38,521 nucleotides of DNA. It comes from a virus. Made by a program: the position numbers and the translations under genes. Shown piece after piece: positions 7,361 to 29,172 of the stretch (positions within the stretch are counted from its first letter, which is position 1; each line of letters starts with the position of its first letter). The stretch is taken from the UHGV virus genome UHGV-0033517, one strand, 5' to 3'. Below the pieces are notes generated by a model. The model ran no database searches, was not told where the DNA came from, and saw only the letters and a program-made list of their open reading frames with translations.

Positions 7361-7363
7361 GGC

Positions 7364-17217: not shown

Positions 17218-17869
17218 TGGCTTCTTGCGCCGCTACCCGCCGTTCTTCTTCCCGGCGCTCCCGCTCTTTCTTTTGGCACTCCCAGCACAGGGTGCGCCCG
17301 TACCTCTCCCGGCCACGCCGTGCAATTTCCTCGGCCGGCTTATAGGTCTTTCCGTCTTGGTAACTGCCTACGGTTTTCCCGCACTCCACACACTTTTCCA
17401 GTGCGTGTGTCGGTTGCGCCGCTTGCCGCTCCTCCTTCGCCTGATACTTCGTGCGGCCGGCCACCCAGTACACGTCAGCACCAATGCCCAGTGCCTTACA
17501 GGCCACGCTTAATGCGTCAGTCAGGGCCATCTTAAACACCTCATCACTGGTATACAGGCCGTTCTGTTCCTTGGCGATAAAACTGCTGCCGCCGGTGCCC
17601 GGTACGGCTTCGCTCCACTCGCCGTCACACTTGTAATACAAGCTAATATCCACAAACCCCGCCACTGCGCCGTTGGCTCCCGGCTCCAGCCACTTCCGGT
17701 CAATGGTGTACTTCCAGCCGATTCCACACGGCCCAAAAGCGTCCGTCAGCGCCTGAATGCGCCACATGGGGTTAATATCGGTAAACCCCTTGATTCTCCC
17801 CGCCTTAATCTCTTTTTTCGCCTCCGGGGGCGTTTCCCGGAAACGATTGTATAATTCAAGGTTATCCAT
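17198..17869 (-). CDS. Rad52/Sak-like single-strand annealing protein with C-terminal zinc ribbon
   Basis: 223 aa. TDINPMWRIQALTDAFGPCGIGW resembles Rad52-family SSAPs. C-terminal CVECG...CWEC. Confidence 0.5.
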   Translation of the reverse strand: MDNLELYNRFRETPPEAKKEIKAGRIKGFTDINPMWRIQALTDAFGPCGIGWKYTIDRKWLEPGANGAVAGFVDISLYYKCDGEWSEAVPGTGGSSFIAKEQNGLYTSDEVFKMALTDALSVACKALGIGADVYWVAGRTKYQAKEERQAAQPTHALEKCVECGKTVGSYQDGKTYKPAEEIARRGRERYGRTLCWECQKKERERREEERRVAAQEANGGPAA

Positions 17870-17870
17870 G

Positions 17871-18392
17871 TTATCCCTCCGTGGTTACCGTGATTCGCAG
17901 CTCCTTTTCCACCGTCACGCCGTCCAAAATTTCCCCGTCCAGCGCTACCCGGCCATCCTCCAGCACCGCTGCCGCCTTTTTCAGCTCGGCCTTGTTCAGC
18001 TTGTATTCGGTCTTTACGCACTCCGGTGCGGCCTCCCTCAGGGTTTGGGTCAGGGCTTCCTCGTCCCCGTAGTCCCACACCGTAGTGGTGCGCTTCGTGG
18101 CCTTTCCGTAGGGGGTGGAGCACTTAGCCTTCGGGTCGGCCTCCAGCTCCGTCCGGTAGTAGTGCTCAATCAGGCTGCTAAAATACCCCTCGTCCCGTTC
18201 AAGGCTTTCCAGCGTATCCTTAAGATAGCTGTTTATCCGTTCAATCTCTGCCGCAGCGGTCTCTTTTTGCTTTTCGATTTCGCCCCGAACCTTTTGCAGC
18301 TCCCGAAACGCCCACCACAGCCTTTCAAGGCTGTCAATCTCAAACGGCTTTTTTTCTTCTGTCTCCACCGAATAGGTTTCCAACTCAGTCAT
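17871..18392 (-). CDS. Gam-like / Sipho_Gp157-like coiled-coil protein (putative host nuclease inhibitor)
   Basis: 173 aa. N-terminal coiled coil, C-terminal ..STPYGKATKRTTTVWDYGDEEAL..KTEYKLNKAELKKA resembles Mu Gam-like proteins. Adjacent to the SSAP. Confidence 0.4.
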   Translation of the reverse strand: MTELETYSVETEEKKPFEIDSLERLWWAFRELQKVRGEIEKQKETAAAEIERINSYLKDTLESLERDEGYFSSLIEHYYRTELEADPKAKCSTPYGKATKRTTTVWDYGDEEALTQTLREAAPECVKTEYKLNKAELKKAAAVLEDGRVALDGEILDGVTVEKELRITVTTEG

Positions 18393-18639
18393 GGTTCAGG
18401 CCTCCCTTCTTCAGGTCGGCCAGCTCCGCTTCCAGTTTGCGAACATATTCTTTCAGCCTTTCGGCCTCATCGGTGGCCACGCCCACCGCCTTTTCCAGCG
18501 TGGTGACCTTCTCGCCAAGCTTCTCGTTTTGCTGGTAGGCCCACTTTAAGGCCTTGCGGTTGTCTTGCAACTCCACAAGGGCCTCAAACAGCCGGTTCTT
18601 GATTCCCGCCAAATCGTATTCGTTCCACTCCATTGACAT
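18385..18639 (-). CDS. Hypothetical coiled-coil protein
   Basis: 84 aa with heptad-like E/K/L periodicity. Confidence 0.35.
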   Translation of the reverse strand: MSMEWNEYDLAGIKNRLFEALVELQDNRKALKWAYQQNEKLGEKVTTLEKAVGVATDEAERLKEYVRKLEAELADLKKGGLNHD

Positions 18640-18700
18640 TTTCCCCTTTCTGTGCTACGCTTTCCTTGGTTTGTTTTGCTTTGCCGCTTCGGGTGTGTCT

Positions 18701-19042
18701 TCACTCGTTGCGGCTTTTTTGTTTTAGTTTCCCGGTCATCCGCAGCAGCGCCAGCTGGTGCCAGCCGTAAGACCCCCGGTATTCACCGCTCAAAGCGGTT
18801 ATCTCAAACAGTGCGTGGTGGGGGTATACCCCTACCAGCCTGAGCGCCCCAACAAAGTCGCCCTCCGGCTCTTTGCGTTTTTCATGCAGCGTGAATCTGT
18901 CTCCGGGGTTCAGTGCCCCGCACAGGTCACGCCAACCGTCCTCATCCAAGTGCATACTGGTGTCAGCTGCTTGTTGGATACGTGCTTCCTTGTGTAAACC
19001 GTTGCTCCACCAATGGTTCACGCCTGTTTTTCCCATGTCCAT
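18701..19042 (-). CDS. Hypothetical protein
   Basis: 113-aa ORF in the early operon. Confidence 0.3.
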   Translation of the reverse strand: MDMGKTGVNHWWSNGLHKEARIQQAADTSMHLDEDGWRDLCGALNPGDRFTLHEKRKEPEGDFVGALRLVGVYPHHALFEITALSGEYRGSYGWHQLALLRMTGKLKQKSRNE

Positions 19043-19218
19043 CCCTCCTCTCGCCTGTATGGATTGTCAGCAGCGGGAACCAACGGCTTGCCCGCTTTTT
19101 TCCGTGCAGCGTTTAAAATTTGATTCCAAAGCGCCCATCTGGTTTTATCCATGTTCTTTTTGCTATGTAACCGGTGCTTCTCAGCGCTTTTCGTTTCCCG
19201 CTTTGCTTCTTCTGTCAT
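19018..19218 (-). CDS. Hypothetical basic protein
   Basis: 66-aa Lys/Arg-rich ORF. Confidence 0.3.
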   Translation of the reverse strand: MTEEAKRETKSAEKHRLHSKKNMDKTRWALWNQILNAARKKAGKPLVPAADNPYRREEGWTWEKQA

Positions 19219-19344
19219 TTTTCAACGCCTCTTCCAGCTGTTCAGGGGATAAATACAATAGCCCATGCCCAAAGGTCTCAACCACTTCCTCTGCAATCCC
19301 CAACGCTTCGATTTCGTCAATCAACCGGAATTTCGATACCATGC

Positions 19345-19512
19345 TCAACGGAATGCACCTCCCAGCCAGCCAAACACCGCTGCCCCGGCCATACCCCCGA
19401 ACATCCCAACGGTGGCGGGGAGGTCAGCCATCGTGTCGCACTCCATACCCCCCACACAGCCGATTGCGATAATAAAGCACAGGGCCGCAAGGGCTAAAAA
19501 TTTAATTTTCAT
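19345..19512 (-). CDS. Small putative lipoprotein
   Basis: Start refined to MKIKFLALAALCFIIAIGC (GGAGGA RBS). Signal peptide with lipobox AIGC. 55 aa. Confidence 0.35.
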   Translation of the reverse strand: MKIKFLALAALCFIIAIGCVGGMECDTMADLPATVGMFGGMAGAAVFGWLGGAFR

Positions 19513-20380
19513 GGCTATCCTCCAACGGTACAAATTCGCCGCACATTAGGTTATCGGGTTTGATTTTGGCGGTCACAGTTCGGTTGGATTTATCGTATAG
19601 CTTGACTTTCAGGCCGGCGTAAATACCAAAGCCATAGCCAGCTTCAATCAACCCGCCAGCTTTAATCGACCCGTTAGCTTCAATCGACCCGCCAGCTTTA
19701 ATCAACCCGCCAGCGTTAATCAACCAGCCAGCTTCAATCGACCGGCCAGCTTTAATCCACTCGCCAGCTTCAATCGACCAGCCAGCTTTAATCCACTCGT
19801 CAGCTTTAATCGACCCGCCAGCTTCAATCAACCCGCCAGCTTCAATCGACCCGGCAGCTTTAATCGACCCGCCAGCTTTAATCAACCTGCCAGCTTTAAT
19901 CGACCCGTCAGCTCTAATCAACCCGGCAGCTTTAATCGACCCGCCAGCGTTAATCAACCAGCCAGCTTCAATCGACCCGCCAGCTTCAATCAACCCGCCA
20001 GCTTCAATCGACCAGTCAGCTTTAATCCACTCGTCAGCTTTAATCGACCCGCCAGCGTTAATCCACTCGCCAGCTTCAATCGACTTGCCCGATTTAATCA
20101 GCCCGCCAGCTTCAATCCACCGTTCGACAACAATCTTTCCCGCAAATACGACCGCCCCATCGGTTTTGATTTCGTCCACGGCCAGTACATCGTCTGTCGG
20201 CCCCAGCCTGTTCAGCAACCAGCTTGCAAAATCCGGTTGGTCGTGTTCGCAAGCAGTGTCCAGAACCTTTTGATACTCACCGCCATCGGGGTGGTGTTCT
20301 GCGAAGAATTCAAGTCCCTCGTCGCATGCTCCCAGTTCAATCAGCGTGTCCAGCGTGATTAAGTCAGTTCCCTTTCTCAT
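19502..20380 (-). CDS. Hexapeptide-repeat beta-helix protein (27 tandem xIxAGx hexads) with distinct N- and C-terminal domains
   Basis: 292 aa. Residues about 97–258 are perfect-period hexads (SIEAGG LIEAGG SIKADE WIKAGW ...), encoded by 18-bp DNA tandem repeats. Confidence 0.6.
   Translation of the reverse strand: MRKGTDLITLDTLIELGACDEGLEFFAEHHPDGGEYQKVLDTACEHDQPDFASWLLNRLGPTDDVLAVDEIKTDGAVVFAGKIVVERWIEAGGLIKSGKSIEAGEWINAGGSIKADEWIKADWSIEAGGLIEAGGSIEAGWLINAGGSIKAAGLIRADGSIKAGRLIKAGGSIKAAGSIEAGGLIEAGGSIKADEWIKAGWSIEAGEWIKAGRSIEAGWLINAGGLIKAGGSIEANGSIKAGGLIEAGYGFGIYAGLKVKLYDKSNRTVTAKIKPDNLMCGEFVPLEDSHEN
19600..20110. repeat. About 27 imperfect tandem copies of an 18-bp unit (consensus near CCAGCTTYAATCRACCCG), in frame within a coding gene
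   Basis: Visible directly in the sequence. Period 18 nt equals 6 codons. Confidence 0.8.
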
Positions 20381-20392
20381 TGCTTTTCCCCC

Positions 20393-20587
20393 TTATTGTG
20401 CCAGCCACCGTGCTACAGTGACCTTTGCATACATCGTTCCACACACCGGGGTAAGGTACTTCTGAATGGTGTGTAAGCTTACCCCCATGTAAACAGCTAC
20501 ATCTTTCTGGTTTATCAGTTCTTTCCCCGGAAAGGCTTTGTCCAGACGTTCTAAATTGTCACGGAACCCCTCTCTCTCCCTCGCCAT
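20393..20587 (-). CDS. Small HTH DNA-binding protein (excisionase/MerR-like HTH_17-type)
   Basis: 64 aa. LINQKDVAVYMGVSLHTIQKYL helix-turn-helix. Confidence 0.45.
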   Translation of the reverse strand: MAREREGFRDNLERLDKAFPGKELINQKDVAVYMGVSLHTIQKYLTPVCGTMYAKVTVARWLAQ

Positions 20588-20609
20588 TGTTTTCCCTCCT
20601 TTGTTGTGT

Positions 20610-20807
20610 CTACTGCCCAGAGGCCAGCAGGTTGATTAATTCCCACCATTCTATCTCGAGAACGGGGGCAATCCGCTTTGCCGCCCGGACACTCATGTTC
20701 AGCTCCCCGGAGGAGTATTTCAATACAGTGCCGTATTTTAGGCCCGTGGTGTTGCTGATTTCCTTTGCGGTGAGCTTCTTCTCTCGTAGCAGCTCTCCAA
20801 ACTTCAT
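20610..20807 (-). CDS. Cro-like XRE-family HTH regulator
   Basis: Start refined to MKFGELLREKK (GGAGGAGGG RBS). 65 aa. First gene of the leftward early operon after the regulatory gap. Confidence 0.55.
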   Translation of the reverse strand: MKFGELLREKKLTAKEISNTTGLKYGTVLKYSSGELNMSVRAAKRIAPVLEIEWWELINLLASGQ

Positions 20808-20821
20808 TCCATCCCTCCTCC

Positions 20822-20850
20822 GTTGACTGTTCCCATTTTTTGTGGTAAAA
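20822..20850 (+). promoter_or_regulatory. Promoter-like TTGACT, 17 nt, TAAAAT (TG-extended) overlapping the palindrome GGTAAAATTTACC
   Basis: Read directly from the 310-bp non-coding gap between the Cro-like gene and the next XRE gene. The 13-bp perfect palindrome overlaps the -10. Confidence 0.35.
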
Positions 20851-21123
20851 TTTACCTTGCAAGTACTGTGAAAGGGAGGTGGTACCTTTGACCAACCTTT
20901 TGTATTTGCACTGTTCCATTTGAATGACGGGGTATAGCGGAATCGGCGGATTTCAGGAACCCCGTCAAAAGTAATTGCAGTAGTGCGGTAGATTTCAGGC
21001 CGCATAAGGCAGGCCTCCAGCTGCCCAAGTTGCGCTGCGTCACAAGACACTATGAGGCAAACATAGTGCTGTCTATGGCCATAGGCGGCGGCAAGGCGCA
21101 AATGGTACAAAACCGGAGGGGCG

Positions 21124-21342
21124 TCATGTGTCGAGTTTGCCCTCGGCGCATGGCGTCGTTTTTATAAAACAAAACAACTCTCGGTGCGGCAATCCAAACA
21201 AATCTTCCAATTTGACAAGAACGGGGTAAGACGGGTTTCGCTGGCCGGTCTCGATTTTCTGAATTGCTGTCAGGGTCAACCCGGCTTGCTTTGCTACAAA
21301 TTCCTGTGTCCATCCTCGTTTAATTCGTTCTTGCCGAATCAT
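21124..21342 (-). CDS. XRE-family HTH regulator (switch cassette 1, leftward)
   Basis: 72 aa. WTQEFVAKQAGLTLTAIQKIETGQRNPS. Divergent from the plus-strand XRE gene at 21433. Confidence 0.55.
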   Translation of the reverse strand: MIRQERIKRGWTQEFVAKQAGLTLTAIQKIETGQRNPSYPVLVKLEDLFGLPHRELFCFIKTTPCAEGKLDT

Positions 21343-21371
21343 TCGTTCCACGTTTCCTCCTTTCCCTCTGT

Positions 21372-21418
21372 CTTAGACTTAAAGTCTAAGATAAGTATAG
21401 TAGACTTAAAGTCTAAAG
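21372..21418. promoter_or_regulatory. Two copies of the palindromic operator TAGACTTAAAGTCTA embedded in face-to-face divergent promoters
   Basis: Copies at about 21372–21390 and 21400–21418, 27 bp apart. Plus promoter TTAGAC, 17 nt, TATAGT. Minus promoter TTGACT, 17 nt, TATACT overlapping it. Confidence 0.5.
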
Positions 21419-21432
21419 TCAAGAGGTTTTTT

Positions 21433-21660
21433 ATGTTTGATAAATCTGTTTTTGGTTCTCGGGTTCTGGAGCTTCGTAAAAATGCCGGCTTCTCTCAACA
21501 GGCCCTTGCAGAACATTTAGGCGTATCCTTCCACCAAATCAGTAAAATGGAAACAGCCCAGCGTGGCCCGTCTCTTGAGGTTGCCTGCGCCCTTGCCGAC
21601 TTCTTTGATGTGAGCTTAGACTACCTCGTGGGCCGCTCTGACAACCCGGAACGCAGGTAG
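21433..21660 (+). CDS. XRE-family HTH regulator, paralog A1 (C-terminal FFDVSLDYLVGRSDNPERR)
   Basis: 75 aa. AAGAGG RBS. Operators immediately upstream. Confidence 0.6.
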   Translation: MFDKSVFGSRVLELRKNAGFSQQALAEHLGVSFHQISKMETAQRGPSLEVACALADFFDVSLDYLVGRSDNPERR

Positions 21661-21687
21661 TTATCTGCATTGCTTCTGTGGGCGCTG

Positions 21688-21963
21688 CTATCTGAAAAAC
21701 ATTACCGCAAACACCAGCGCTACGGCTACCAACGTAGCTACAACGCAAATGGTCGTTCGCTCTTTTTGGTAACTGTAAAGGTTCTGCAACGAACGCATTT
21801 GCTCAAGGGTGTAATTGGTCAGCCAGATTAGCCGCTTTCCCATTTCCTCCGGGGCCATTTCTTCCTGCTCCTCCGGCTCCTGTGCCCTCAACGCTTCTTT
21901 GGCTCGTTCTTCCAACCAGAGGTGTTGGCACTGCCTTGCGGCCTCCTGTTGCTCAGGGTTCAT
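21688..21963 (-). CDS. Small membrane-anchored protein (C-terminal TM helix), translationally coupled to upstream XRE gene
   Basis: 91 aa MNPEQQEAARQ...ICVVATLVAVALVFAVMFF. TAATG stop/start overlap with the XRE gene at 21963..22157. Confidence 0.4.
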   Translation of the reverse strand: MNPEQQEAARQCQHLWLEERAKEALRAQEPEEQEEMAPEEMGKRLIWLTNYTLEQMRSLQNLYSYQKERTTICVVATLVAVALVFAVMFFR

Positions 21964-22157
21964 TATTTCCCCTCCCCAAAAATCTCCTCCACCGTGGTGT
22001 CCAGTACCCGGGCTATGCGGATTGCCGTCTGCACCCGGGGCTCCCGTTTGCCGTATTCGTACCGCTGGTAGGCCACCTCGGCGATTCCGCTTTCCCTTGC
22101 GACTTGTGCCTGCGTCTTGCCGGACGCTGTGCGGGCCGCTTTTAACTTCGTGTTCAT
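21963..22157 (-). CDS. XRE-family HTH regulator (switch cassette 2, leftward)
   Basis: 64 aa, KTQAQVARESGIAEVAYQRYEYGKREP. Divergent from the plus-strand XRE paralogs A2/A3. Confidence 0.55.
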   Translation of the reverse strand: MNTKLKAARTASGKTQAQVARESGIAEVAYQRYEYGKREPRVQTAIRIARVLDTTVEEIFGEGK

Positions 22158-22176
22158 TTCCCCTCTCTTTCTGGAT

Positions 22177-22231
22177 TACACTACCGTTCGGTTGTGCTTT
22201 ACTATAATATACCACTACCGTTCGGTTGTGT
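22177..22231. promoter_or_regulatory. Direct repeat CACTACCGTTCGGTTGTG (x2) flanking a TATAAT-like element in a divergent intergenic region
   Basis: Copies at about 22178–22195 and 22213–22230, separated by ctttactataatatac. Confidence 0.45.
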
Positions 22232-22269
22232 CAATCCCCTCTGGATAAAATTATTGGAGGTGTTTTGCC

Positions 22270-22482
22270 ATGACATTAGCTGACCGATTGTGTGAGCTTC
22301 GTTCCGCCCGCAACTTAACACAAAAAGACGTGTACACCGCCATAGGAGTATCCCCCATTGTATATCAGCGGTATGAGTACGGAAGATTGCCCGCTTATGA
22401 TAAGTTCTTGGCTTTGGCTGATTTCTTCGATGTCAGCTTAGACTATCTGGCGGGGCGCTCCGATGAGCCTCGCCGCAGGTAG
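22270..22482 (+). CDS. XRE-family HTH regulator, paralog A2 (C-terminal FFDVSLDYLAGRSDEPRRR)
   Basis: 70 aa. GGAGG RBS. Confidence 0.6.
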   Translation: MTLADRLCELRSARNLTQKDVYTAIGVSPIVYQRYEYGRLPAYDKFLALADFFDVSLDYLAGRSDEPRRR

Positions 22483-22499
22483 TTTCAGGAGGTGTTGAT

Positions 22500-22718
22500 A
22501 TGACAGATTTTGTAACCCGGCTTAAGGAATGCCGAAAGGCCAACAAAAATACCCAAAAGCAAGTAGCGCTGGCCATTGGCTCGACTGAACAGAATTATCA
22601 ACGTTATGAGCGTGGTGTCCAGCAACCTACGCTCCCGGTTCTCCTCGCCCTCGCCGACTACTTCAACGTGTCCCTCGACTACCTTGTGGGGCGGTCCGAC
22701 AACCCCGAACGGCATTAG
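22500..22718 (+). CDS. XRE-family HTH regulator, paralog A3 (C-terminal YFNVSLDYLVGRSDNPERH)
   Basis: 72 aa. AGGAGG RBS. 17 nt after the A2 stop. Confidence 0.6.
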   Translation: MTDFVTRLKECRKANKNTQKQVALAIGSTEQNYQRYERGVQQPTLPVLLALADYFNVSLDYLVGRSDNPERH

Positions 22719-22921
22719 CACCCCAGATGATTCACAATGTCTCGAATCATGGCCGTGCCGCTGTCCATGGCTACGTTGATTCTCCGGCTCCCGCCGCCAA
22801 CGAGCCGCACCTCCACGATTTCCTTTTCCTTGTCGTAGGTCAGCGACTTTACGTCCCATGCGTTGCTGGTCGCCCGCAGGGTATCGGCTAACAGGTCACA
22901 GATTTTTTGCTTGTCCTCCAT
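22715..22921 (-). CDS. Hypothetical 68-aa protein downstream of a small RHH gene
   Basis: MEDKQKICDLL.... Preceded by the duplicated 5' region TGCGACATTTGACAAAGGGG. Confidence 0.4.
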   Translation of the reverse strand: MEDKQKICDLLADTLRATSNAWDVKSLTYDKEKEIVEVRLVGGGSRRINVAMDSGTAMIRDIVNHLGC

Positions 22922-22953
22922 TGTTTCCCCTCCCCTTTGTCAAATGTCGCAAA

Positions 22954-23088
22954 TCAGTTTCCACGACTGTCCAGCCAGTCTCGCAAAATCGTAACCAGCA
23001 AGGCGTTCATCGTGATTCCCAACCGCTTTGCCTCTGCCCGCAGCGCCTCTTTCGTTTCCTCCGTTGTGCGGATAAGCACCTGTGCCAT
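22954..23088 (-). CDS. Ribbon-helix-helix (Arc/CopG-like) protein, 44 aa (below the ORF-track cutoff)
   Basis: Hand-translated MAQVLIRTTEETKEALRAEAKRLGITMNALLVTILRDWLDSRGN. GGAGGTG RBS. Coordinates +/-1. Confidence 0.4.
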   Translation of the reverse strand: MAQVLIRTTEETKEALRAEAKRLGITMNALLVTILRDWLDSRGN

Positions 23089-23103
23089 TTTGTTCACCTC
23101 CAT

Positions 23104-23206
23104 TTGATATCTTTATGATATCACTTTATTTCCCGTGTGTCAACTTCTTTTTGATATCTTTTTGATTTCTTGCCGTTGATATCACTTTCAAATATAATTG
23201 ATATCA
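23104..23206. promoter_or_regulatory. Array of five GATATC-centred operator-like repeats (TTGATATCA) within divergent RHH-gene promoters
   Basis: GATATC at about 23106, 23117, 23153, 23178, 23200. Plus -10 TATAAT at about 23193. Minus TTGACA, 17 nt, TATCAT at about 23144–23116. Confidence 0.5.
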
Positions 23207-23225
23207 AATAAGGGGAGGTAATGTT

Positions 23226-23411
23226 ATGGGGATTCAAGCTAATCCATATCCGCTTCGGATTGAAAAGTCGTTGATGGAGAAACTAAAGATTGTCGCTGCC
23301 AGCAACGGCAGGTCAGTAAACAAAGAGATTGAATATCTCATCCGGCAGATGGTCGCTGCCTATGAGCAGGAACACGGGGCTATTCCCGTCCAGCCGGATG
23401 GCCTTTGTTGA
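23226..23411 (+). CDS. Ribbon-helix-helix (Arc/MetJ/CopG-like) regulator
   Basis: 61 aa. PLRIEKSLMEKLKIVAASNGRSVNKEIEYLI is a typical RHH N-terminal beta-strand plus helices. Confidence 0.5.
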   Translation: MGIQANPYPLRIEKSLMEKLKIVAASNGRSVNKEIEYLIRQMVAAYEQEHGAIPVQPDGLC

Positions 23412-23553
23412 TAAGCAGAAGAACATAGGCGTTAAAACTTATCCCGTGTTCAACTGCTTCCCGGTGGAGTGCTTCTTTTAAGGCACTGGGTAGCCGCAAC
23501 GTGACCGCCACTCTTTCCCCCTGCCCCGGCAGGGGCTTTTTTGTGTTCTCCAT
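23380..23553 (-). CDS. Ribbon-helix-helix protein, 57 aa (below the ORF-track cutoff), convergent with and overlapping the 3' end of the plus-strand RHH gene
   Basis: Hand-translated MENTKKPLPGQGERVAVTLRLPSALKEALHREAVEHGISFNAYVLLLINKG.... Preceded by the duplicated 5' region. Confidence 0.4.
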   Translation of the reverse strand: MENTKKPLPGQGERVAVTLRLPSALKEALHREAVEHGISFNAYVLLLINKGHPAGRE

Positions 23554-23583
23554 TGCTTCCCCCCCTTTGTCAAATGTCGCAGA

Positions 23584-23823
23584 TTAGCTGGCCTTATCTT
23601 GCGTTTTGCGTAAGTCGTCGGCAAAAAAAACCGAAACCGCCTCCTCTTTAGAATCAAAAAGGATATGGGCAATTTTAATCAAAACCCCGTAGGTGAATTT
23701 TTCGGGGTTTTTTAAGTATCCAGAAAGCGTGTTTCTGTCCACACCTACGTCTTTAGAAAGCGCCGTGATGGTGTACCCACGTTCGGCCATTTTCCCTCGA
23801 AGTTTTTGAGTGTCTACTCTCAT
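23584..23823 (-). CDS. XRE-family HTH regulator (switch cassette 4, leftward)
   Basis: 79 aa. ERGYTITALSKDVGVDRNTLSGYLKN. Confidence 0.55.
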   Translation of the reverse strand: MRVDTQKLRGKMAERGYTITALSKDVGVDRNTLSGYLKNPEKFTYGVLIKIAHILFDSKEEAVSVFFADDLRKTQDKAS

Positions 23824-23839
23824 TTGTTTCCCCCCTTTG

Positions 23840-23990
23840 GACTTTCGTATTGCGTAAGTCTATGATACTATATCGCCGCCGTCTTGTCAATACTTTTTGC
23901 GTATCTTTTTGCGCTAAACGCAAAAAAAATATTGCAATCATTCTTCGAGTGCTATATAATCACATTAAAGATTTAGTAAAAGAGGGAAGT
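23840..23990. promoter_or_regulatory. Divergent regulatory region with TTGCGTAAGTC repeats, palindrome TTTGCGCTAAACGCAAA and promoter TTGCAA, 17 nt, TATAAT
   Basis: TTGCGTAAGTC also occurs at about 23606. The plus promoter sits about 30 nt upstream of the 23996 gene. Confidence 0.45.
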
Positions 23991-23995
23991 GAAAA

Positions 23996-24319
23996 ATGAG
24001 CAATTTATCAACCGTATTAAAAGCCAGAAGAAAAGACCTCGGCTTAACACTTGCCCAAATCGCTGACGAAATGGGTGTGTCCGAAGCCACCGTGCAACGC
24101 TGGGAAAGCGGAAACATTAAATCTATTAGGCACAACAAGGTGGTAAAGCTGGCGCAGCTTCTTGATGTTTCCCCGGCGCAGCTCATGGGTTGGGATATAG
24201 ACACAAACAAAGAAGAATCAATTCTGGACAAAACTCTCCGCAGATTATTAGTTAACGCCACAGAAGAAGATAAACAGGCGTTGATTTTTCTGTTGGAGCG
24301 CTTGCAGGACAAAAAATAA
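23996..24319 (+). CDS. XRE-family repressor-like protein (cI-like candidate)
   Basis: 107 aa. N-terminal HTH LTLAQIADEMGVSEATVQRWESG plus C-terminal dimerisation-like extension. Nearest regulator to the integrase, same strand. Confidence 0.6.
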   Translation: MSNLSTVLKARRKDLGLTLAQIADEMGVSEATVQRWESGNIKSIRHNKVVKLAQLLDVSPAQLMGWDIDTNKEESILDKTLRRLLVNATEEDKQALIFLLERLQDKK

Positions 24320-24321
24320 AA

Positions 24322-24352
24322 GCCTCACCAGAAAGGCCGGTGAGGCAAGGTG
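24322..24352 (+). terminator. Hairpin GCCTCACC...GGTGAGGC after the repressor-like gene (weak T tract)
   Basis: 8-bp perfect stem followed by ..GGTGTTTTG. Confidence 0.35.
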
Positions 24353-24368
24353 TTTTGACCGTATACTT

Positions 24369-24500
24369 TTACAAGCACCAGAGCAGGAGTTTTCTAATCG
24401 CTCCTCTCCACACAACAAACCAGAGAATCGCCAATACCTTGGTGGCGGTTGGCTTGTCGCAGAATTTGAGCATAATCTTTGTGTCGGTGTCATTGTTCAT
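24369..24500 (-). CDS. Possible 43-aa hydrophobic peptide
   Basis: MNNDTDTKIMLKFCDKPTATKVLAILWFVVWRGAIRKLLLWCL with GAAGGGAGAA RBS. TG-extended TAAAAT upstream. Confidence 0.25.
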   Translation of the reverse strand: MNNDTDTKIMLKFCDKPTATKVLAILWFVVWRGAIRKLLLWCL

Positions 24501-24630
24501 AGTTGGTTCTCCCTTCGGGGGTCGGCTAACAATCCACCATGGTTTGTGTAATATTTTAGCACTAGTTTCCATAACTTTCTAGGGCAATGTTTCACAAAAG
24601 CGGCTAAGAAACGGCTAAGAATTTAAATTT

Positions 24631-24668
24631 GTAATAAAACAGAACCCCGCACCGGGGAGGGTGCGGGG
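24631..24668 (-). terminator. Intrinsic terminator (9-bp GC stem CCCCGCACC/GGTGCGGGG plus U tract), minus-oriented
   Basis: Hairpin at about 24645–24668. Minus strand followed by TTCTGTTTTATT. Confidence 0.5.
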
Positions 24669-24787
24669 TCTGTGAAAGGGTAAAAATGTAAAAGGAGAAA
24701 CAGTAGGTAGAACAAGTAACAGAAGGGATTCAGGGGGCAGGGGAGTACCCCCTACAATTACTGTACCACATTATTAAGGTTTACGCA

Positions 24788-24816
24788 ATAAAAAATCCCT
24801 GTGTTCCAGCACAGGG
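24788..24816 (-). terminator. Intrinsic terminator (CCCTGTG/CACAGGG stem plus AUUUUUUAUU), minus-oriented. Shields int from late-operon read-through
   Basis: 7-bp stem with 6-nt loop. T-run on the minus strand. Confidence 0.45.
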
Positions 24817-24919
24817 AAAAAGACTACACCGGGCAGGCCGGATATAGCCACCACCAAGGTCATTATATCACCTGCCCCGGGATTTTGCACGCAAAATTCA
24901 GAAAGGGCGGGTATTTTTT

Positions 24920-25945
24920 ATGCTGAAACGCAAAGACGGTCGTTGGCAGGAAGCGCTTACAACCACCAAAAACGGGGAAACCACAAGAAAATACTTCTAC
25001 GGCAAGACGAAGGCCGAAGTGGCCAAAAAGATGGCGGCATACCAGCAAAAACAGGAAGCTGGCCGCACCTTCGCAGCCGTTGCGGATGAATGGGACACCT
25101 ACCACAGCGAATTGGTCACCTACAACGCCCACGTTGCGTACAAAGCCCCTTACCGTATGGCGGTTGACCGCTTCGGGGATACGCCCATTCGAGAGATAAC
25201 GCCGCCGCAAATCCAGCAGTATATTAAACAGATTGCCGCCAAAGGCTACGCTCGGCGCACCGTGGCGGGGCATTTAACGCTGCTGAACATGATTTTCGAC
25301 TTTGGCGTTGTGTCCGGGGACTTGTTGACAAACCCCACGGCCAGTGTGGCCATTCCCCGGGGGCTTAAAACCACCCCGAGAACCGTTCCCGACAATTCGG
25401 ATATTCAGAAGATAAAGGAAAATCTTCATTTGCCCTTTGGCCTGTTCGCCTATCTGCTGCTTTACACCGGACTGCGCCGGGGCGAAGCGTTGGCCCTGAC
25501 TTATGAGGATATAGACCGGGCCGCCGGGGTTATCCACGTTAATAAGGCGGTGTACTTTGATGTAAACCAACCAGCCGTGAAAGATACAAAGACAAAGGCG
25601 GGAACCCGTACCGTCCCCCTGTTGTCCCCGCTGGAAGCCGCTCTGCCACGCAAGGGCCGTGGGCCGATATTTTGTACCACGGAGGGGAAGCTGCTCACGC
25701 AGACGGTTTTCCGGCGGCGATGGGCGGCCTACCAGAAGGCCACGGGGATTAAGTCAACCCCCCACCAACTCCGTCACCTCTATGCCACCATTTTGTTCGA
25801 GGCGGGGATAGAGGACAAAACCACGCAGGAGATTATGGGGCACTCCTCCATTGCCACCACTCGGGCAATTTATACCCATATCCGGGAACAAAAGCTGGCC
25901 GAAACCACCGACCGATTGAACAGCTATTTCGGCCAAAATATTTGA
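24920..25945 (+). CDS. int: Tyrosine site-specific integrase
   Basis: 341 aa. N-terminal RKDGRWQ arm-type domain. Catalytic-domain signature ..HQLRHLYATILFEAGIEDKTTQEIMGHSSIATTRAIYTH. Confidence 0.85.
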   Translation: MLKRKDGRWQEALTTTKNGETTRKYFYGKTKAEVAKKMAAYQQKQEAGRTFAAVADEWDTYHSELVTYNAHVAYKAPYRMAVDRFGDTPIREITPPQIQQYIKQIAAKGYARRTVAGHLTLLNMIFDFGVVSGDLLTNPTASVAIPRGLKTTPRTVPDNSDIQKIKENLHLPFGLFAYLLLYTGLRRGEALALTYEDIDRAAGVIHVNKAVYFDVNQPAVKDTKTKAGTRTVPLLSPLEAALPRKGRGPIFCTTEGKLLTQTVFRRRWAAYQKATGIKSTPHQLRHLYATILFEAGIEDKTTQEIMGHSSIATTRAIYTHIREQKLAETTDRLNSYFGQNI

Positions 25946-26031
25946 CACCAATTTGACACACAATCCTATGCGATTTTGTGCTAGAATTTGCTATTTTTTG
26001 CCGTCCCAATGTCTTAAAAAAAGTGCGTGTA

Positions 26032-26066
26032 AATGGCGGAAACACGCACTTTTTCGTGGATGAAGA
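26032..26066 (+). terminator. Intrinsic terminator after int (AGTGCGTG/CACGCACT stem plus TTTT)
   Basis: 8-bp stem, 13-nt loop, then TTTTCG. Coordinates +/-1. Confidence 0.5.
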
Positions 26067-26106
26067 TAGCTGGACTTGAACCAGCGACCTCTTGCATGTC
26101 AACCAT
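26067..26106 (-). other. tRNA 3'-end-like fragment (T-arm GCTGG-TTCAAGT-CCAGC plus acceptor strand plus CCA). Putative attP core
   Basis: Minus strand reads ..GAGGTCGCTGGTTCAAGTCCAGCTATCTTCATCCA. No foldable anticodon or D-arm, and no matching 5' acceptor strand upstream, so partial. Confidence 0.4.
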
Positions 26107-26299
26107 GCCAAAACGGCGAGTTTTCGCCATTTGTTTGGGTGCTGACACCAGGCCGACAAAATCACACCGCCGTTGGGTTTTAAAATCTCTTTTGATAATA
26201 GCAAATATCCCGGAGGATTTCAACCGCCGGGCAAACAAAAAGGCCCCCTTTCGGGGGCGTTAATTCTTTTGGGAAACAATATTCCTTATAACATATATT

Positions 26300-26965
26300 T
26301 TACAGTCTGCCCATTCTGTCCAGCACCACGAAAATCCGTATCATATCCTCCGACAGATTCAGTAAATTCGGGTCGGCAAAGGCCCCGGCGGCCACCAGCT
26401 TCTCCACGGTGGCCCGCCCCCATTCGGGCAACGATTCCACGGTTTGATAGTACATAACTTCGTCCTCCTGTTGTTTTTGTTTCAGATAAAAGTCCAGCCG
26501 CCCCCGGAAAAACGTCCAACTAAGCCCGGGCTGAATACAATCTTTTTTGATAAAGATTCGTGGACAGTCTTTGGGATACCAGTCACGGTGCCACTTAATG
26601 TCAGCAATTCCCAAATCGTATTCTCTCATTTTGTCGGCTACAAACTCGGCGGTAGTGTCCAACACGCCCCGGCGGTTGCCGCTTTCAATCATTTCAACGC
26701 TAACAGAAAACCGATTTCCCACCGTGTTTTTACAGTGATAGGCCTCCTCGGTGTCGGGAATGGCCTGAATCACCACTCCGTCACCAACAACGTAGTGAAA
26801 GGACGCTTCCCGCTGGTTAGCCGGATTTTCCAGCCAGTCCCGTTCGTTTTGCGGGGTACTGTTTGGGTTGGCCGTGCTGTGCAAGGTTATACTTTTTACA
26901 GGATAATTCCCCCCGGGCCTCCGAAAAAATCCTTTTGGCAATAACTGCTTCTTTAATTCGTACAT
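26300..26965 (-). CDS. Endolysin, N-acetylmuramoyl-L-alanine amidase (Amidase_2/PGRP-type)
   Basis: Start refined to MYELKKQ (GGAGGGAA RBS). Zn-amidase motifs ..HSTANPNS..ASFHYVV..CKNTVGNRFSVSVEM... Last gene of the late operon. Confidence 0.75.
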   Translation of the reverse strand: MYELKKQLLPKGFFRRPGGNYPVKSITLHSTANPNSTPQNERDWLENPANQREASFHYVVGDGVVIQAIPDTEEAYHCKNTVGNRFSVSVEMIESGNRRGVLDTTAEFVADKMREYDLGIADIKWHRDWYPKDCPRIFIKKDCIQPGLSWTFFRGRLDFYLKQKQQEDEVMYYQTVESLPEWGRATVEKLVAAGAFADPNLLNLSEDMIRIFVVLDRMGRL

Positions 26966-27121
26966 GGTTCCCTCCAAGTCTTTGAATTTGTGGGGCGATT
27001 TAAGCGATTCCCGCCCCGGTCGATAAATTACACGCCGAACAGGCAAAACGCATTCTAGCCCCCTTGTAGGCCATTCTGAGCGGTCATGTAAAAACAGGCC
27101 CCCTTGCGGGGGCTGTTTCGG

Positions 27122-27376
27122 TTACAGGCAAGCCTTGTACAGGGCCACGATTTCGGGAATCTCGGTCATTTTAACCCGTGCGCCGTTCAGGGCGTTCCCG
27201 CCGATATAGGCGGTTTCGAGGTCGTACATGGTCACGTCCTTGCCATCGTGCAAGGGATACCCGTGTTCGCAGGGGACTTCGGTCTCCACCACCTTGCCGG
27301 TGGCGTATTCCCTTGCGGTTTCCCGGCCCTCTACAACGTGCAAGATACCGCCTTTGTCGATGTACGCATAATTCAT
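27122..27376 (-). CDS. Hypothetical protein in lysis cassette
   Basis: Start refined to MNYAYIDKGG (AAAGGAGG RBS). 84 aa. Confidence 0.35.
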   Translation of the reverse strand: MNYAYIDKGGILHVVEGRETAREYATGKVVETEVPCEHGYPLHDGKDVTMYDLETAYIGGNALNGARVKMTEIPEIVALYKACL

Positions 27377-27453
27377 AGCAATGCCTCCTTTGGATTGGTT
27401 GTTTTTATGGTCTGCTGCCATCCGGCAAGCCCCACCAGCAGTTAATAACATGA

Positions 27454-28440: not shown

Positions 28441-28441
28441 G

Positions 28442-28865: not shown

Positions 28866-28960
28866 TTTATTCCTCCAATTCCTTTTCCACAGCGGCCCGC
28901 AACCGGGCGGGTACATCATCCAAAGTTTTCAGGCCGACCTGAATCAGTTTGGCATACAGC

Positions 28961-29161: not shown

Positions 29162-29172
29162 GGTTGCCCTCC

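Follow-up and report, generated by a model that had tools for sequence, protein, structure and literature searches.

Stacked divergent regulator units as a probable mosaic and expandable immunity island in an uncultured human-gut temperate phage

The window, that is, the whole stretch of viral DNA analysed (UHGV-0033517, 38,521 nucleotides), carries between its early operon and its integrase gene a segment (positions 20393-24319) which, together with a structured RNA, FuFi-1, forms the island governing immunity and early control in a temperate phage that is uncultured, has a contractile tail and comes from a human-gut Firmicute. Fourteen small genes (P1-P14) lie in this segment and are arranged as four divergent units, with the minus strand reading in the early direction and the plus strand in the lysogenic direction. 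The features are as follows:

20393-20587, minus: P1, 64 aa, weak HTH (Pfam, PHROG), early operon
20610-20807, minus: P2, 65 aa, RstR/Cro-like HTH below cut-off
20823-20851, plus: promoter-like site TTGACT-17-TAAAAT with TG, consensus match only
20984-21156, plus: FuFi-1 structured sRNA (Rfam RF02986), 3' terminator hairpin at 21120-21157
21124-21351, minus: P3, 75-aa XRE, early direction, HTH_3 59.7 bits
21374-21415: putative unit 1 operators, two 15-bp palindromes TAGACTT-A-AAGTCTA (21374-21388 and 21401-21415)
21433-21660, plus: P4, 75-aa XRE, lysogenic direction, HTH_3 54.6 bits
21688-21963, minus: P5, 91-aa ORFan "cargo" with C-terminal membrane anchor
21963-22157, minus: P6, 64-aa XRE, early direction, HTH_3 57.6 bits
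22179-22230: putative unit 2 operators, two 18-bp imperfect palindromes CACTAC-CGTTCG-GTTGTG (22179-22196 and 22213-22230)
22270-22482, plus: P7, 70-aa XRE paralogue, lysogenic direction, HTH_3 43.3 bits
22500-22718, plus: P8, 72-aa XRE paralogue, HTH_3 60.6 bits
22715-22921, minus: P9, 68 aa, early-gene family widespread in Firmicutes phages, no named family
22929-22957 and 23559-23587: two copies of a 29-nt linker repeat, 90% identical, bracketing P10-P11-P12
22954-23103, minus: P10, RHH, early direction, FitA-like 23.8 bits, below Pfam cut-off
23105-23206: putative operators of unit 3, an array in which TGATATC occurs five times (one pair spaced 11 bp), overlying predicted back-to-back promoters
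23226-23411, plus: P11, 61-aa Arc-family RHH, lysogenic direction, PF03869 26.3 bits (cut-off 20.4)
23380-23553, minus: P12, 57-aa RHH (HicB family), downstream of P13, PF05534 25.7 bits (cut-off 21)
23584-23823, minus: P13, 79-aa Cro-like XRE, early direction, HTH_26 34.4 bits
23842-23924: putative unit 4 operators, CTTTCGTATTGCGTAAGTC, TTGCGTATC and palindrome TTTGCGCTAAACGCAAA
23996-24319, plus: P14, 107-aa cI-like primary repressor, HTH_3 50.3 bits
24920-25945, plus: tyrosine integrase (PF00589), end of the island
about 26058-26108: attP core with tRNA 3' fragment (relative L002: junction at window position 26108, tRNA at 7361-7434 of L002)

Nine of the fourteen proteins pass curated Pfam cut-offs (seven XRE-HTH, two RHH) and three more give weaker HTH or RHH matches (P10, P2 and P1), which bears out an earlier note on this DNA that had counted at least ten small XRE/RHH proteins. 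P1, found in all variants, also matches the XRE HMM built in this analysis; P2 reaches 20.2 bits with HTH_26 (cut-off 22) and matches NCBIfam RstR under its cut-off (E 4e-5); P10 has PHROG RHH and Arc-like matches. The three plus-strand XREs P4, P7 and P8 are 46-47% identical to one another, against 14-29% to the other XREs, and are thus paralogues as had been proposed. The XRE density of the island is exceptional, with nine ORFs in 4 kb matching an XRE HMM derived from the window's own proteins, against a maximum of three among 126 other viral loci.

Across the small ORFs, most substitutions relative to related phages are synonymous, and none of the frames was seen to be interrupted by a stop codon. 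Synonymous to non-synonymous counts were 15.5:3.5 and 17:3 for P1, 12:0 for P2, 8:0 for P3, 10:1 and 11:2 for P4, 6:0 for P6, 14:0 for P7, 9:1 for P8, 6:1 for P10 and 8:0 for P11; only weak constraint was seen on P5 (9:12). Because synonymous far exceed non-synonymous substitutions, and two control frames behaved as noncoding (0:10 and 1:11), these ORFs are taken to be real genes; to judge from these counts, purifying selection is strong on nearly all of them. A 76-aa ORF antisense to P8, called on a public contig, was rejected as a gene (0:10, noncoding).

Each unit possesses promoter-like sites and its own repeats, absent from the rest of the 38.5-kb genome, so that four divergent units with distinct operator types can be recognised as first described. 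The operator motifs are confined to the intergenic region of their own unit, where every one of them overlaps a predicted -35 box, -10 box or start site. Promoter-like sites number 14, against 5.4 +/- 2.6 expected; units 1, 3 and 4 each have two that face one another, and unit 2 has a minus promoter plus a perfect plus-strand TATAAT. In unit 1, XRE faces XRE (P3/P4) around two palindromes spanning two overlapping, predicted face-to-face promoters, in agreement with the earlier reading. TAGACTTAAAGTCTA occurs twice (21374 and 21401), and allowing up to three mismatches on two strands gives four matches against 0.35 expected, a number equalled in 0 of 100 shuffles.

Unit 2 does contain an XRE (P6) and a membrane-anchored protein (P5) facing the two XRE paralogues P7 and P8. 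The stop codon of P6 overlaps the ATG of P5, which is translationally coupled to it. P5 has a C-terminal transmembrane segment (KD19 maximum 2.98), no family in profile searches (Pfam, PHROG, NCBIfam, PADLOC) and homologues in two clusters only, at 95% identity or more, and is thus lineage-restricted; P6 is nearly invariant among variants wherever present. The repeats here, CACTACCGTTCGGTTGTG at 22179 and 22213 (two copies against 0.06 expected), had been described as direct repeats; there are indeed two copies, but each is itself an 18-bp imperfect palindrome, CAC(T/A)AC-N6-GTTGTG. They overlie a minus promoter (TTGACA-17-TATATT) and an overlapping plus-strand TATAAT (22203-22208), and P6 is the best candidate to bind them. 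In variant C the arms are retained and the spacer is altered in both copies. Since the operators of units 1 and 2 lie over both facing promoters, these units may be co-repressed autoregulated modules instead of bistable switches.

In unit 3, an RHH (P10) with the 68-aa P9 faces another RHH (P11) around a five-site array, as had been claimed: all eight window matches to TGATATC (five sites, both strands) fall within 23105-23206, against 1.6 expected, and the sites are invariant among variants while the spacers differ. The true start of P10 is probably at 23088, giving 44 aa, as suggested by a ribosome-binding site (GGAGGTG) and by the orthologue in variant B, a 43-aa RHH to which P10 is 53% identical. 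P9 has 174 homologues across many phages (55-96% identity), always in the early-operon direction, and its AlphaFold2 model (pLDDT 93.6) is an alpha-beta3-alpha structure that matched no known fold. The 3' ends of P8 and P9 overlap. The predicted P11 transcript runs antisense through P12 to a terminator at 23518-23545, and P12 co-travels with P10 and P11 (variants A, C and E). This RHH cassette (P11/P10-P9, plus P12) matches the layout of immI in phage P22.

Unit 4 (P14/P13-P12), adjoining int, is the primary CI/Cro-type switch. An XRE plus an RHH facing a cI-like XRE with motifs between them had been described, and this arrangement stands, except that one TTGCGTAAGTC copy falls within the 3' end of P13, a gene that contains a distal operator-like site (23598-23616). 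CTTTCGTATTGCGTAAGTC lies at the start of the minus promoter and the TTTGCGCTAAACGCAAA palindrome between both -35 boxes. TTGCG[TC] half-sites number six in 23560-24000 and 45 window-wide on both strands. P14 consists of an HTH and a tail of about 40 aa, with no S24 domain in the Pfam search, and is followed by a bidirectional terminator (24322-24346); a search for a LexA/Cheo box found none. In phage L117, FuFi-1 adjoins a cro-like XRE that shares 40% identity with P13 and a 140-aa repressor to which P14 is 31% identical along its entire length, which indicates that P13 and P14 are homologous to the pair abutting this RNA in simpler phages of that type.

P1, P2 and FuFi-1 itself had been left out of the original description, which was incomplete in this respect. 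Encoded on the lysogenic strand, the RNA lies in the 316-bp gap 20808-21123, runs antisense to the early operon and overlaps the 3' end of P3; it belongs to the anatomy of the island and marks its early-gene-side boundary, with P2 directly after it in the early direction. The window copy matches the full model with 41 of 45 pairs (56.7 bits, E 1.4e-11), 2.9 bits under the Rfam gathering score of 59.6; the L002 orthologue scores 59.9 bits, and a model made from the window copy retrieves true FuFi-1 RNAs. Its fold is stronger on the plus strand (z -6.1 vs -1.4 on the minus strand), and it is 97.7-98.8% identical across variants with a noncoding substitution pattern. The promoter-like site at 20823-20851 could drive its transcript. 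Among distinct FuFi-1 RNAs in IMG/VR, an XRE gene lies within 1 kb downstream in 30 of 35 and upstream in 5 of 39, and the cI-like gene closest to the RNA shares its strand. In 13 of 30 other phages FuFi-1 sits upstream of cI and is co-oriented with it, so an exclusively antisense function cannot hold in general. The interval from P3 to P2 showed neither a strong minus-strand terminator nor a minus-strand promoter-like site, so early transcription has to traverse the FuFi-1 gene.

Among close relatives a shared backbone (int, lysis, tail, Gam and SSB genes in common) carries no fewer than six regulatory layouts, the number of divergent units ranging from one to four:

Layout A: the window
Layout A' (L002): P3 and unit 1 operators deleted; extra 74-aa gene
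Layout B (L028): cI-S24/cro only, P3 truncated to a remnant, microhomology junction
Layout C (L031-33): double-HTH repressor, without P7
Layout D (L034-36): without unit 3; extra 90- and 115-aa genes
Layout E (L158): without P5 and P7; P9 replaced by a plus-strand 85-aa gene

The int-proximal repressors are of three unrelated kinds, namely the 107-aa cI-like P14, a 210-aa cI with an S24 domain and a 185-197-aa double-HTH protein. Breakpoints are located at 22933 (variants B and D) and 23573 (variant C), at the two linker copies, and the sequences show that recombination at such short linkers and microhomologies has added, removed and exchanged both cassettes and small ORFan cargo genes, as the suggestion of mosaic acquisition had anticipated. 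Relatives with one to four units point to exchangeable add-on control modules, not one fixed switch. One relative, variant B, depends on just one switch, a classical cI-S24/cro pair, which goes halfway towards the refuting case named in the earlier note (relatives with a conserved arrangement and one repressor); its backbone works without units 1-3, which are thus accessory. However, variant B arose by deletion, and stacks of several units (five of six layouts) are the rule in this lineage. Phages with bipartite immunity (immC/immI of P22) or with a tripartite system (P1, N15) are textbook knowledge, so the statement that a typical temperate phage has one switch was too strong; the density seen here is nonetheless exceptional. 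We read the island as an immunity region that is mosaic and open to expansion, a novel form of the multipartite immunity known from P22 and P1/N15.

A mechanism with one lock per internal early promoter can be inferred. The route from the switch to the replication genes would be the sole transcription path, and a cassette placed there would insert an early-direction promoter and hence also carry its own lock. In the lysogen, the set co-oriented with int (P14, P11, P7/P8, P4 and FuFi-1) would be expressed, each repressor acting on operators that overlap the opposed early promoter. Leak-through would be damped by convergent or antisense transcription (P4 against P5, P8 against P9, P11 against P12), and the FuFi-1 transcript would also damp read-through from P3 to P2. 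After induction, the early-direction regulators P13, P12, P10, P6 and P3 would take control and transcription would pass the FuFi-1 gene to P2, P1 and the replication genes. Layered immunity and anti-repression, one of the original proposals, may plausibly apply. We give the mosaic stack of cassettes combined with this working model about an even chance of being the best explanation as a whole.

It is conceivable, but rather unlikely, that the cassettes are regulated cargo units (acr-aca-like or moron-like), in which the XRE and RHH proteins autoregulate strong promoters for fast-turnover ORFans; P5, P9 and the 74-, 85-, 90- and 115-aa genes of relatives would then have anti-defence, exclusion or host-takeover roles and the stack would be a cargo hotspot, not part of the lysis-lysogeny decision. 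These genes are the most variable parts of the layouts, have no Pfam, PHROG or PADLOC family and, for P5, are restricted to the lineage; they also follow regulators in operons (P6-P5, P10-P9, P8-85aa, P4-115aa) with palindromes over the promoters. Unit 1 of the window, however, has no cargo, nor have P7, P11 and P12; regulators too are gained and lost, and the P9 family is conserved, unlike typical anti-defence ORFans. Less probable still is that the extra plus-strand proteins P4, P7, P8 and P11 serve to repress the matching cassettes of superinfecting relatives, widening lysogen immunity beyond the range of the primary repressor. Relatives in circulation alongside this phage have units 1-3 in common with it, down to the operator arms, but differ in carrying unrelated primary repressors; the early genes of an incoming relative can be reached only via these cassettes, and the P8 alleles differ in the HTH region (that of L002 has a different HTH and the same tail). 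Yet, as the units are not separated by a strong minus-strand terminator, read-through from the primary promoter of an incoming phage, if unrepressed, would get past the internal locks, and variant B, lacking the cassettes, would escape.

Hidden regulator-toxin or exclusion pairs had also been suggested, and toxin-antitoxin or abortive-infection pairs of an RHH/XRE antitoxin and a small toxin (P10-P9, P6-P5, P13-P12) now seem very improbable. P5 is small and membrane-anchored, and there are weak RHH/XRE matches to the antitoxin families FitA-like, HicB, BrnA, HigA and MqsA, but these are generic DNA-binding folds. Searches of Pfam, NCBIfam and PADLOC matched none of the non-regulator genes to a toxin or defence family. 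P12 belongs to the RHH proteins itself, P9, a common early gene, occurs in other phages without an RHH neighbour, and in variant D a 490-nt insertion parts P5 from P6. That units 1-3 are inert, decaying leftovers of former immunity regions is disfavoured and hardly to be expected. Variant B continues to circulate although most of them are gone from it (its version of P9, P0004, was read on 17 contigs), and L002 has lost P3 and the unit 1 operators; against this stand the purifying selection and intact reading frames described above, the prevalence of multi-unit layouts, predicted promoters that are intact, and operators that are conserved while their spacers drift.

The regulatory island (20393-24319) lies between the early operon and int and holds fourteen small genes, numbered P1 to P14 from left to right; the early direction is the minus strand and the lysogenic direction, towards int, is the plus strand. 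Four divergent units, each with its own repeats, are present as the earlier note described: unit 1 (P3 facing P4), unit 2 (P5-P6 facing P7-P8), unit 3 (P9-P10 facing P11) and unit 4 (P12-P13 facing P14). The repeat motifs occur far above chance, and each is restricted genome-wide to its own intergenic region. Promoter-like sites number 14 (5.4 +/- 2.6 expected), with facing pairs in the gaps. The predicted promoters of units 1, 2 and 4 are as follows.

Unit 1, plus strand: -35 at 21374 and -10 at 21396, predicted promoter
Unit 1, minus strand: -35 at 21422 and -10 at 21399, predicted promoter, overlapping the plus promoter face to face
Unit 2, minus strand: TTGACA-17-TATATT, with one palindrome in the spacer and a second just past the start
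Unit 4, minus strand: TTGACA-17-TATCAT, predicted promoter
Unit 4, plus strand: TTGCAA-17-TATAAT, predicted promoter

Palindrome O1 of unit 1 spans the plus -35 box and the minus start, while O2 spans the minus spacer and the plus start; with this placement over both promoters, a bound dimer would silence both. The repeats of unit 2, earlier described as direct repeats, were found to take the form of 18-bp imperfect palindromes (CAC(T/A)AC-N6-GTTGTG). On the plus strand of this unit a perfect TATAAT overlaps the minus -10 box and lacks a good -35 box, which may leave room for activation from the upstream palindrome. Coverage of both promoters by the putative operators of units 1 and 2 argues for co-repression over a toggle. 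A divergence in repeat specificity of unit 2 in one group of relatives (layout C, below) was considered and rejected, the palindrome arms being kept and the spacer alone changed. Unit 3 has back-to-back promoters with five TGATATC sites, two per core and one between; two of these are 11 bp apart, the spacing expected of arrays bound by ribbon-helix-helix (RHH) proteins, and the sites are invariant among the layouts while the spacers drift. Six TTGCG[TC] half-sites were identified for unit 4 in 23560-24000, with one putative operator at the minus-strand start and the palindrome TTTGCGCTAAACGCAAA between both -35 boxes. The earlier placement of the unit 4 motifs needs one amendment, in that one TTGCGTAAGTC copy sits inside the 3' end of P13; a distal site copy in P13 lies approximately 245 bp away (244 bp).

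No strong terminator was found on the minus strand from P13 to P1, nor a promoter-like site between P3 and P2, so that early transcription could arrive at P2, P1 and the replication genes only by crossing, in antisense, the gene of the structured RNA in the P2-P3 gap (below). Three plus-strand genes are convergent with a minus-strand gene (P4 with P5, P8 with P9, P11 with P12), and strong terminators follow plus-strand genes only after P11 and P14.

XRE-type HTH domains (PF01381 and relatives) were identified above the Pfam curated cut-offs in P3, P4, P6, P7, P8, P13 and P14. P2 falls below the XRE/HTH cut-off and P1 is marginal, both being weak HTH proteins. P11 (Arc, PF03869, 26.3 bits against 20.4) and P12 (HicB-family) are RHH proteins above the Pfam cut-off; P10 is an RHH protein under it, with PHROG RHH and Arc-like matches and a 53%-identical RHH protein in a relative. 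No family was found for P5, which has a C-terminal membrane anchor, or for P9. P4, P7 and P8 are mutually 46-47% identical and are true paralogues. The density of regulators is exceptional by an HMM derived from the window's own proteins, with which nine XRE ORFs were counted per 4 kb against a maximum of three in 126 other viral loci (1.27 Mb).

Coding status was assessed by comparing the window with relatives differing by 2-12% in DNA and counting synonymous and non-synonymous substitutions. The ratios were 12:0 for P2, 8:0 for P3, 10:1 for P4, 6:0 for P6, 14:0 for P7, 9:1 for P8, 6:1 for P10, 8:0 for P11 and 17:3 for P1; P5 (9:12) and P12 (6:13) are under weaker constraint, with reading frames still intact. 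Since substitutions in the small ORFs are overwhelmingly synonymous, these are real genes, and the reservation in the earlier note that they might not be expressed is not borne out. The start of P10 was revised from the earlier call and is probably at 23088, giving a protein of 44 aa. Two competing ORFs were rejected as genes: a 76-aa ORF antisense to P8, which the public gene call had chosen (0:10, with a stop in the relative L036), and a 166-aa ORF running through the P2-P3 gap and P2 (1:11 and 3:14, with a stop in the relative L033). Annotation traps are flagged accordingly. On public contigs the antisense 76-aa ORF (22485-22715, minus strand) is called in place of P8, P3 (21124-21351, minus strand) is left uncalled on several, and a cro-like XRE gene of layout D (L034, 6786-6989) is likewise uncalled.

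The window is a complete, circularly permuted temperate-phage genome, organized outside the island as follows.

1-12 kb, minus strand: head and packaging genes
12-20.4 kb, minus strand: early genes (Gam, SSB and others)
24920-25945, plus strand: tyrosine integrase
About 26058-26108: attP core with a tRNA 3' fragment
Past the attP core, minus strand: lysis genes and Mu-like baseplate and sheath genes

Positions 15996-32319 are 100% identical to scaffold_1794 of the human-gut metagenome ERZ28614723. That scaffold is 38,576 bp long, i.e. the window plus 55 bp, and the excess would fit a circular assembly with a k-mer overlap. The same phage occurs as an integrated prophage in the comparison locus L002, where the junction corresponds to window position 26108, a complete tRNA is found at 7361-7434, and the host genes past it are DAGK-like and NMO. 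The tRNA fragment at attP and the complete tRNA at the prophage end indicate integration into a tRNA 3' end. A megablast of 14 kb against INPHARED gave no match, tblastn with P9 gave no close cultured relative, and an integrase scan of IMG/VR gave no relative; the same scan of GTDB genomes yielded only a 24%-identity match in an Oscillospiraceae MAG. The head protein matched only human faecal virome fragments, at approximately 60% identity. Next to the island, an early protein of 292 aa (19502-20380, minus strand) is built from periodic repeats of approximately 18 nt (6 aa; GGSIKA/EWIKA-like), has a weak FapA beta-solenoid match and many BLAST self-matches, and varies in length from approximately 206 to 310 aa across relatives.

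Relatives were found by look-ups through homologues of P9 and of the integrase. Six layouts of the island were identified on a shared backbone of int, amidase, Peptidase_C1 protein, baseplate, Gam, SSB, P2 and P1; FuFi denotes the structured RNA of the P2-P3 gap.

Regulatory layouts in the window and in numbered comparison loci (a hyphen joins same-strand genes and "facing" separates oppositely oriented genes)
A (window): FuFi / P3 facing P4 / P5-P6 facing P7-P8 / P9-P10 facing P11 / P12-P13 facing P14 / int
A' (L002): P3 and the unit 1 operators deleted; extra 74-aa gene; P9 paralogue between P2 and P1
B (L028-30): FuFi / P3 remnant / P9-P10'-DUF739 cro facing 210-aa cI with S24 domain / int
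C (L031-33): as A, without P7; pair of XRE64/68 facing double-HTH 185-197-aa protein in place of P13 facing P14
D (L034-36): without unit 3; uncalled 67-aa XRE cro directly before P9; double-HTH repressor; 115-aa gene after P4; 90-aa gene between P5 and P6
E (L158): without P5; 85-aa plus-strand gene after P8 in place of P9; unit 3 kept; double-HTH repressor

Three unrelated primary repressors thus serve one phage. The breakpoints of the immunity swaps are copies of a 29-nt linker at 22929-22957 (layouts B and D) and 23559-23587 (layout C), and because swaps break at both copies the units are exchangeable. The mosaic acquisition proposed in the earlier note is therefore supported by cassettes exchanged at linkers across the six layouts. 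Layout B is a deletion derivative, since P3 is joined to the last ~25 nt of P8 via a microhomology of ~10 nt; in layout A', the deletion of P3 and the unit 1 operators puts the RNA terminator directly before the ribosome-binding site (RBS) of P4. Turnover is fastest among the non-regulator genes, which, with the exception of P9, are ORFans. From these alignments, the island is a mosaic of self-contained, predicted promoter-operator-regulator cassettes with FuFi-1 and int as borders, its genes under selection and its linkers used for exchange. Units 1-3 are accessory, yet the rule in this lineage. Holding one to four repressor-operator modules, the six layouts are a ready system for the role of extra switches in lysogeny, induction timing and cross-immunity of gut phages, and the 29-nt linker, a conserved XRE tail and the microhomologies are concrete recombination joints for the exchange of immunity specificity and cargo.

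The two linker copies are 90% identical, immediately precede the RBS of P9 and that of P12, and bracket P10-P11-P12; they contain a TGCGAC-like element similar to GTCGCA-TTAT-TGCGAC, the operator palindrome of the L117 group of comparison phages. The XRE tail was seen in alleles of P8, those of L002 (3499-3714) and the window (22500-22718) having unrelated N-terminal HTH regions and the same C-terminal tail LADYFNVSLDYLVGRSD; this tail resembles a joint at which recombination could exchange the DNA-binding specificity. A small ORF (24369-24500, minus strand) between the cI-like gene and int encodes a 43-aa hydrophobic peptide (MNNDTDTKIMLKFCDKPTATKVLAILWFVVWRGAIRKLLLWCL) of no family; it has an RBS, a TG-extended -10 box, a promoter-like site at 24581-24553 and a strong terminator at 24346-24322, and lies inside the segment swapped together with the immunity cassette. 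The peptide could represent a moron, or else resemble a type-I toxin.

A structured RNA overlooked in the earlier note is encoded on the plus strand in the 316-bp gap that separates P2 from P3 (20808-21170 with its promoter-like site and terminator). This non-coding gap exceeds its neighbours in conservation: among relatives, the RNA motif is 97.7-98.8% identical and the flanking genes 88-94%. An Rfam E-value scan matched FuFi-1 (RF02986) at 20984-21156 on the plus strand over the full length of the model (1-175); the match includes each of the six helices and the intrinsic terminator at the 3' end, and 41 of the 45 pairs are canonical. The score of 56.7 bits (E 1.4e-11) is below the gathering score of 59.6, which the 98.8%-identical orthologue in L002 exceeds (59.9 bits). 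Compared with shuffled sequences, the plus strand gave a far more stable fold (z -6.1), and the minus strand did not (z -1.4). The flanking signals are as follows.

20823-20851, plus strand: strong promoter-like site, TTGACT-17-TGgTAAAAT
21120-21157, plus strand: terminator hairpin with U-run to 21165, overlapping the 3' end of P3

A covariance model built from this lineage only matched, at full length, 83 of 100 IMG/VR loci pre-picked by a loose sequence pattern, and all 13 loci that were re-tested are FuFi-1 by Rfam (120-147 bits), a range from which the GC-rich copy of the window, at 56.7 bits, stands apart as an outlier. Compensatory changes were seen in 30 of the 45 pairs of the FuFi-1 structure. 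On the full-length match, the conserved fold and the recovery of Rfam-confirmed members by the lineage model, the gap element is predicted to be a divergent, GC-rich FuFi-1. No other Rfam family was found in 21300-26350 at E values up to 0.1.

In the main text of Weinberg et al. 2017 (PMC5737381), FuFi-1 is described as an orphan that shows features of sophisticated function and no self-cleavage; unlike for its sister motifs, no protein association is given for it there, and the cI/cro-adjacent phage context found here is likewise absent from that main text. No further mention of FuFi-1 was found in the literature searched. Among 42 distinct FuFi-1 RNAs of IMG/VR phages, counted where flanking sequence sufficed, an XRE gene lies within 1 kb downstream in 30/35 and upstream in 5/39. 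Pfam confirms these neighbours, one cI with an S24 domain among them, and the RNA shares its strand with the nearest cI-like gene. Two arrangements were distinguished. In the first, seen in 17 of 30 other phages, a cro-like XRE gene of 65-86 aa converges on the RNA, its 3' end abutting the RNA terminator, and a 119-140-aa cI-like XRE gene comes next on the RNA's strand. In the second (13 of 30), the RNA and the cI-like gene share a strand, with the RNA 150-230 nt upstream. The window, where FuFi-1 precedes P3 and P4, has the first arrangement. The pair next to FuFi-1 in the L117 group is closest to P14/P13 and not to P3/P4 (full-length identity 31% for P14, E 1e-18; 40% for P13, E 4e-14), which indicates that in simple phages FuFi-1 abuts a P13/P14-type switch. 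In the window, approximately 2.4 kb of extra cassettes (P3 to P12) separate the two.

FuFi-1 is hereby placed at the phage lysis-lysogeny switch, and a seven-year-old question of function becomes directly testable. Tentatively, and with rather less than an even chance, FuFi-1 may be a lysogeny-side "gate" RNA marking the distal border of an expandable immunity island; in this lineage, self-locking cassettes with or without ORFan cargo would have entered the stretch from the RNA to the primary switch and produced a modular, multi-lock immunity. If true, this would give the orphan FuFi-1 class its first biological role and point to recombination-driven layering and diversification of immunity in temperate phages.

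It is proposed that each cassette would bring an early-direction promoter into the sole route to the replication genes and, with its promoter entering that route, would have its own lock in the form of a repressor gene transcribed in the lysogenic direction. The products made in a lysogen would be P14, P11, P7/P8, P4 and FuFi-1; each repressor would silence its facing promoter, and leaks would be damped by convergent and antisense transcription; after induction, P13, P12, P10, P6 and P3 would take over. This overall picture of a mosaic island with locks is given about an even chance of being correct, with much higher confidence in its descriptive part and lower confidence in the lock logic.

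Alternatively, the regulators may chiefly control the variable ORFan cargo, in an acr-aca-like or moron-like manner. Rapid turnover of the cargo is consistent with this, and we consider it unlikely, as unit 1, P7, P11 and P12 are without cargo. In acr-aca operons, HTH or RHH Aca autorepressors are found beside small variable genes. The island shares with them small HTH/RHH regulators accompanied by variable ORFans and inverted repeats over strong promoters; the architecture is similar only partly, since in the island the cargo follows its regulator, many regulators are cargo-less and divergent pairs lie between cI and the early genes. Less probable still is a role of the extra repressors as hetero-immunity decoys, directed at co-circulating relatives. 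The idea is attractive in view of layouts A to E, in which cassettes are shared and the primary repressor differs; the locks would, however, be bypassed by read-through if the primary promoter were unrepressed.

The regulator-toxin pairs suspected in the earlier note were not found: no toxin or defence family was identified in Pfam, NCBIfam or PADLOC for any non-regulator gene (P5, P9 and the cargo of the relatives). As, in addition, both P9 and P5 can occur apart from their partners, toxin-antitoxin pairs are very improbable. P5 homologues were found in two near-identical clusters only. P9 (22715-22921, minus strand, in the window; 1625-1831 in L002; 10170-10376 in L034) belongs to a family of 67-69-aa early proteins of many Firmicutes phages (174 clusters), and a second, 75%-identical copy lies between P2 and P1 in some relatives. 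Its confident AlphaFold2 model (alpha-beta3-alpha) is without a neighbour in the PDB (best E 0.35), and in BFVD it is matched by uncharacterised viral proteins only; as modelled, the fold would be new. Neither a Pfam, PHROG or NCBIfam family nor an ANT domain was found in P9. It is absent in layout E. Elsewhere it is kept alongside three unrelated primary repressors, which makes an antirepressor role unlikely. That the units are inert relics is equally improbable, being contradicted by purifying selection and operator conservation.

Several known systems resemble parts of the island. The bipartite immunity of P22 consists of immC (c2/cro) and immI (mnt facing arc-ant, with sar RNA). As in P22, a primary CI/Cro-type switch is accompanied by a separate divergent unit of two RHH repressors with putative operators over both promoters, and unit 3 (Arc-family P11 facing the RHH protein P10, then a downstream gene) has the predicted layout of immI; the gene after P10 is P9, and not an Ant, KilAC or AntA antirepressor. 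The island differs further from P22 in the attachment of a third RHH gene (P12), in the side-by-side position of the units, which are far apart in P22, and in two more XRE units. P1/P7 and N15 have tripartite immunity (immC, immI with antisense C4 RNA, and immT), C4 being a processed, target-specific antisense RNA. The likeness lies in immunity spread over several loci together with a small RNA, theirs being made in the lysogen and acting against early/antirepressor transcripts. The island has no homology to those loci and no icd/ant genes, and FuFi-1, in contrast to C4, is an RNA of 175 nt and several helices whose conservation extends over unrelated phages. Multipartite immunity is already established in P22 and P1/N15, and the link of FuFi-1 to the lysis-lysogeny switch is the more novel product than the regulator stack itself.

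Lambda OOP and P22 sar are antisense RNAs. FuFi-1 resembles them as a short, terminated RNA in the cI direction, convergent with the 3' end of the early gene just past cro, a position it takes relative to P3 here and to cro-like genes in 17/30 other phages. To our knowledge, neither OOP nor sar is conserved in structure or sequence across unrelated phages, whereas FuFi-1 is conserved in both. Judging by its position upstream of cI on the same strand in many phages (13/30), plain antisense action cannot be its general role.

Unit 4 has features of a lambda-type CI/Cro switch, P14 (plus strand) and P13 (minus strand) being divergent XRE genes beside int, which begins 600 nt past P14, with several related putative operators over the promoters. 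It departs from that type in that P14 (107 aa) lacks the Peptidase_S24 domain of autocleavage and RecA-dependent induction, and no LexA/Cheo box (GAAC-N4-GTTC) was found within the window. The CI/MOR switch of the Firmicutes phage TP901-1 has a non-cleavable CI and three operators (OR, OL and OD). By analogy, unit 4 may be comparable to it in having a small CI that lacks a protease domain, half-sites repeated at the promoters and a distal site; it differs in half-site sequence and number of sites.

Other structured RNAs were noted in the comparison loci. A RAGATH-8 RNA (278 bits) was identified in the regulatory region of a P9-family phage (L023, 881-1157), and Skipping-rope RNAs are present in two FuFi-1-bearing contigs (L073, 4906-4989; L076, 10560-10630).
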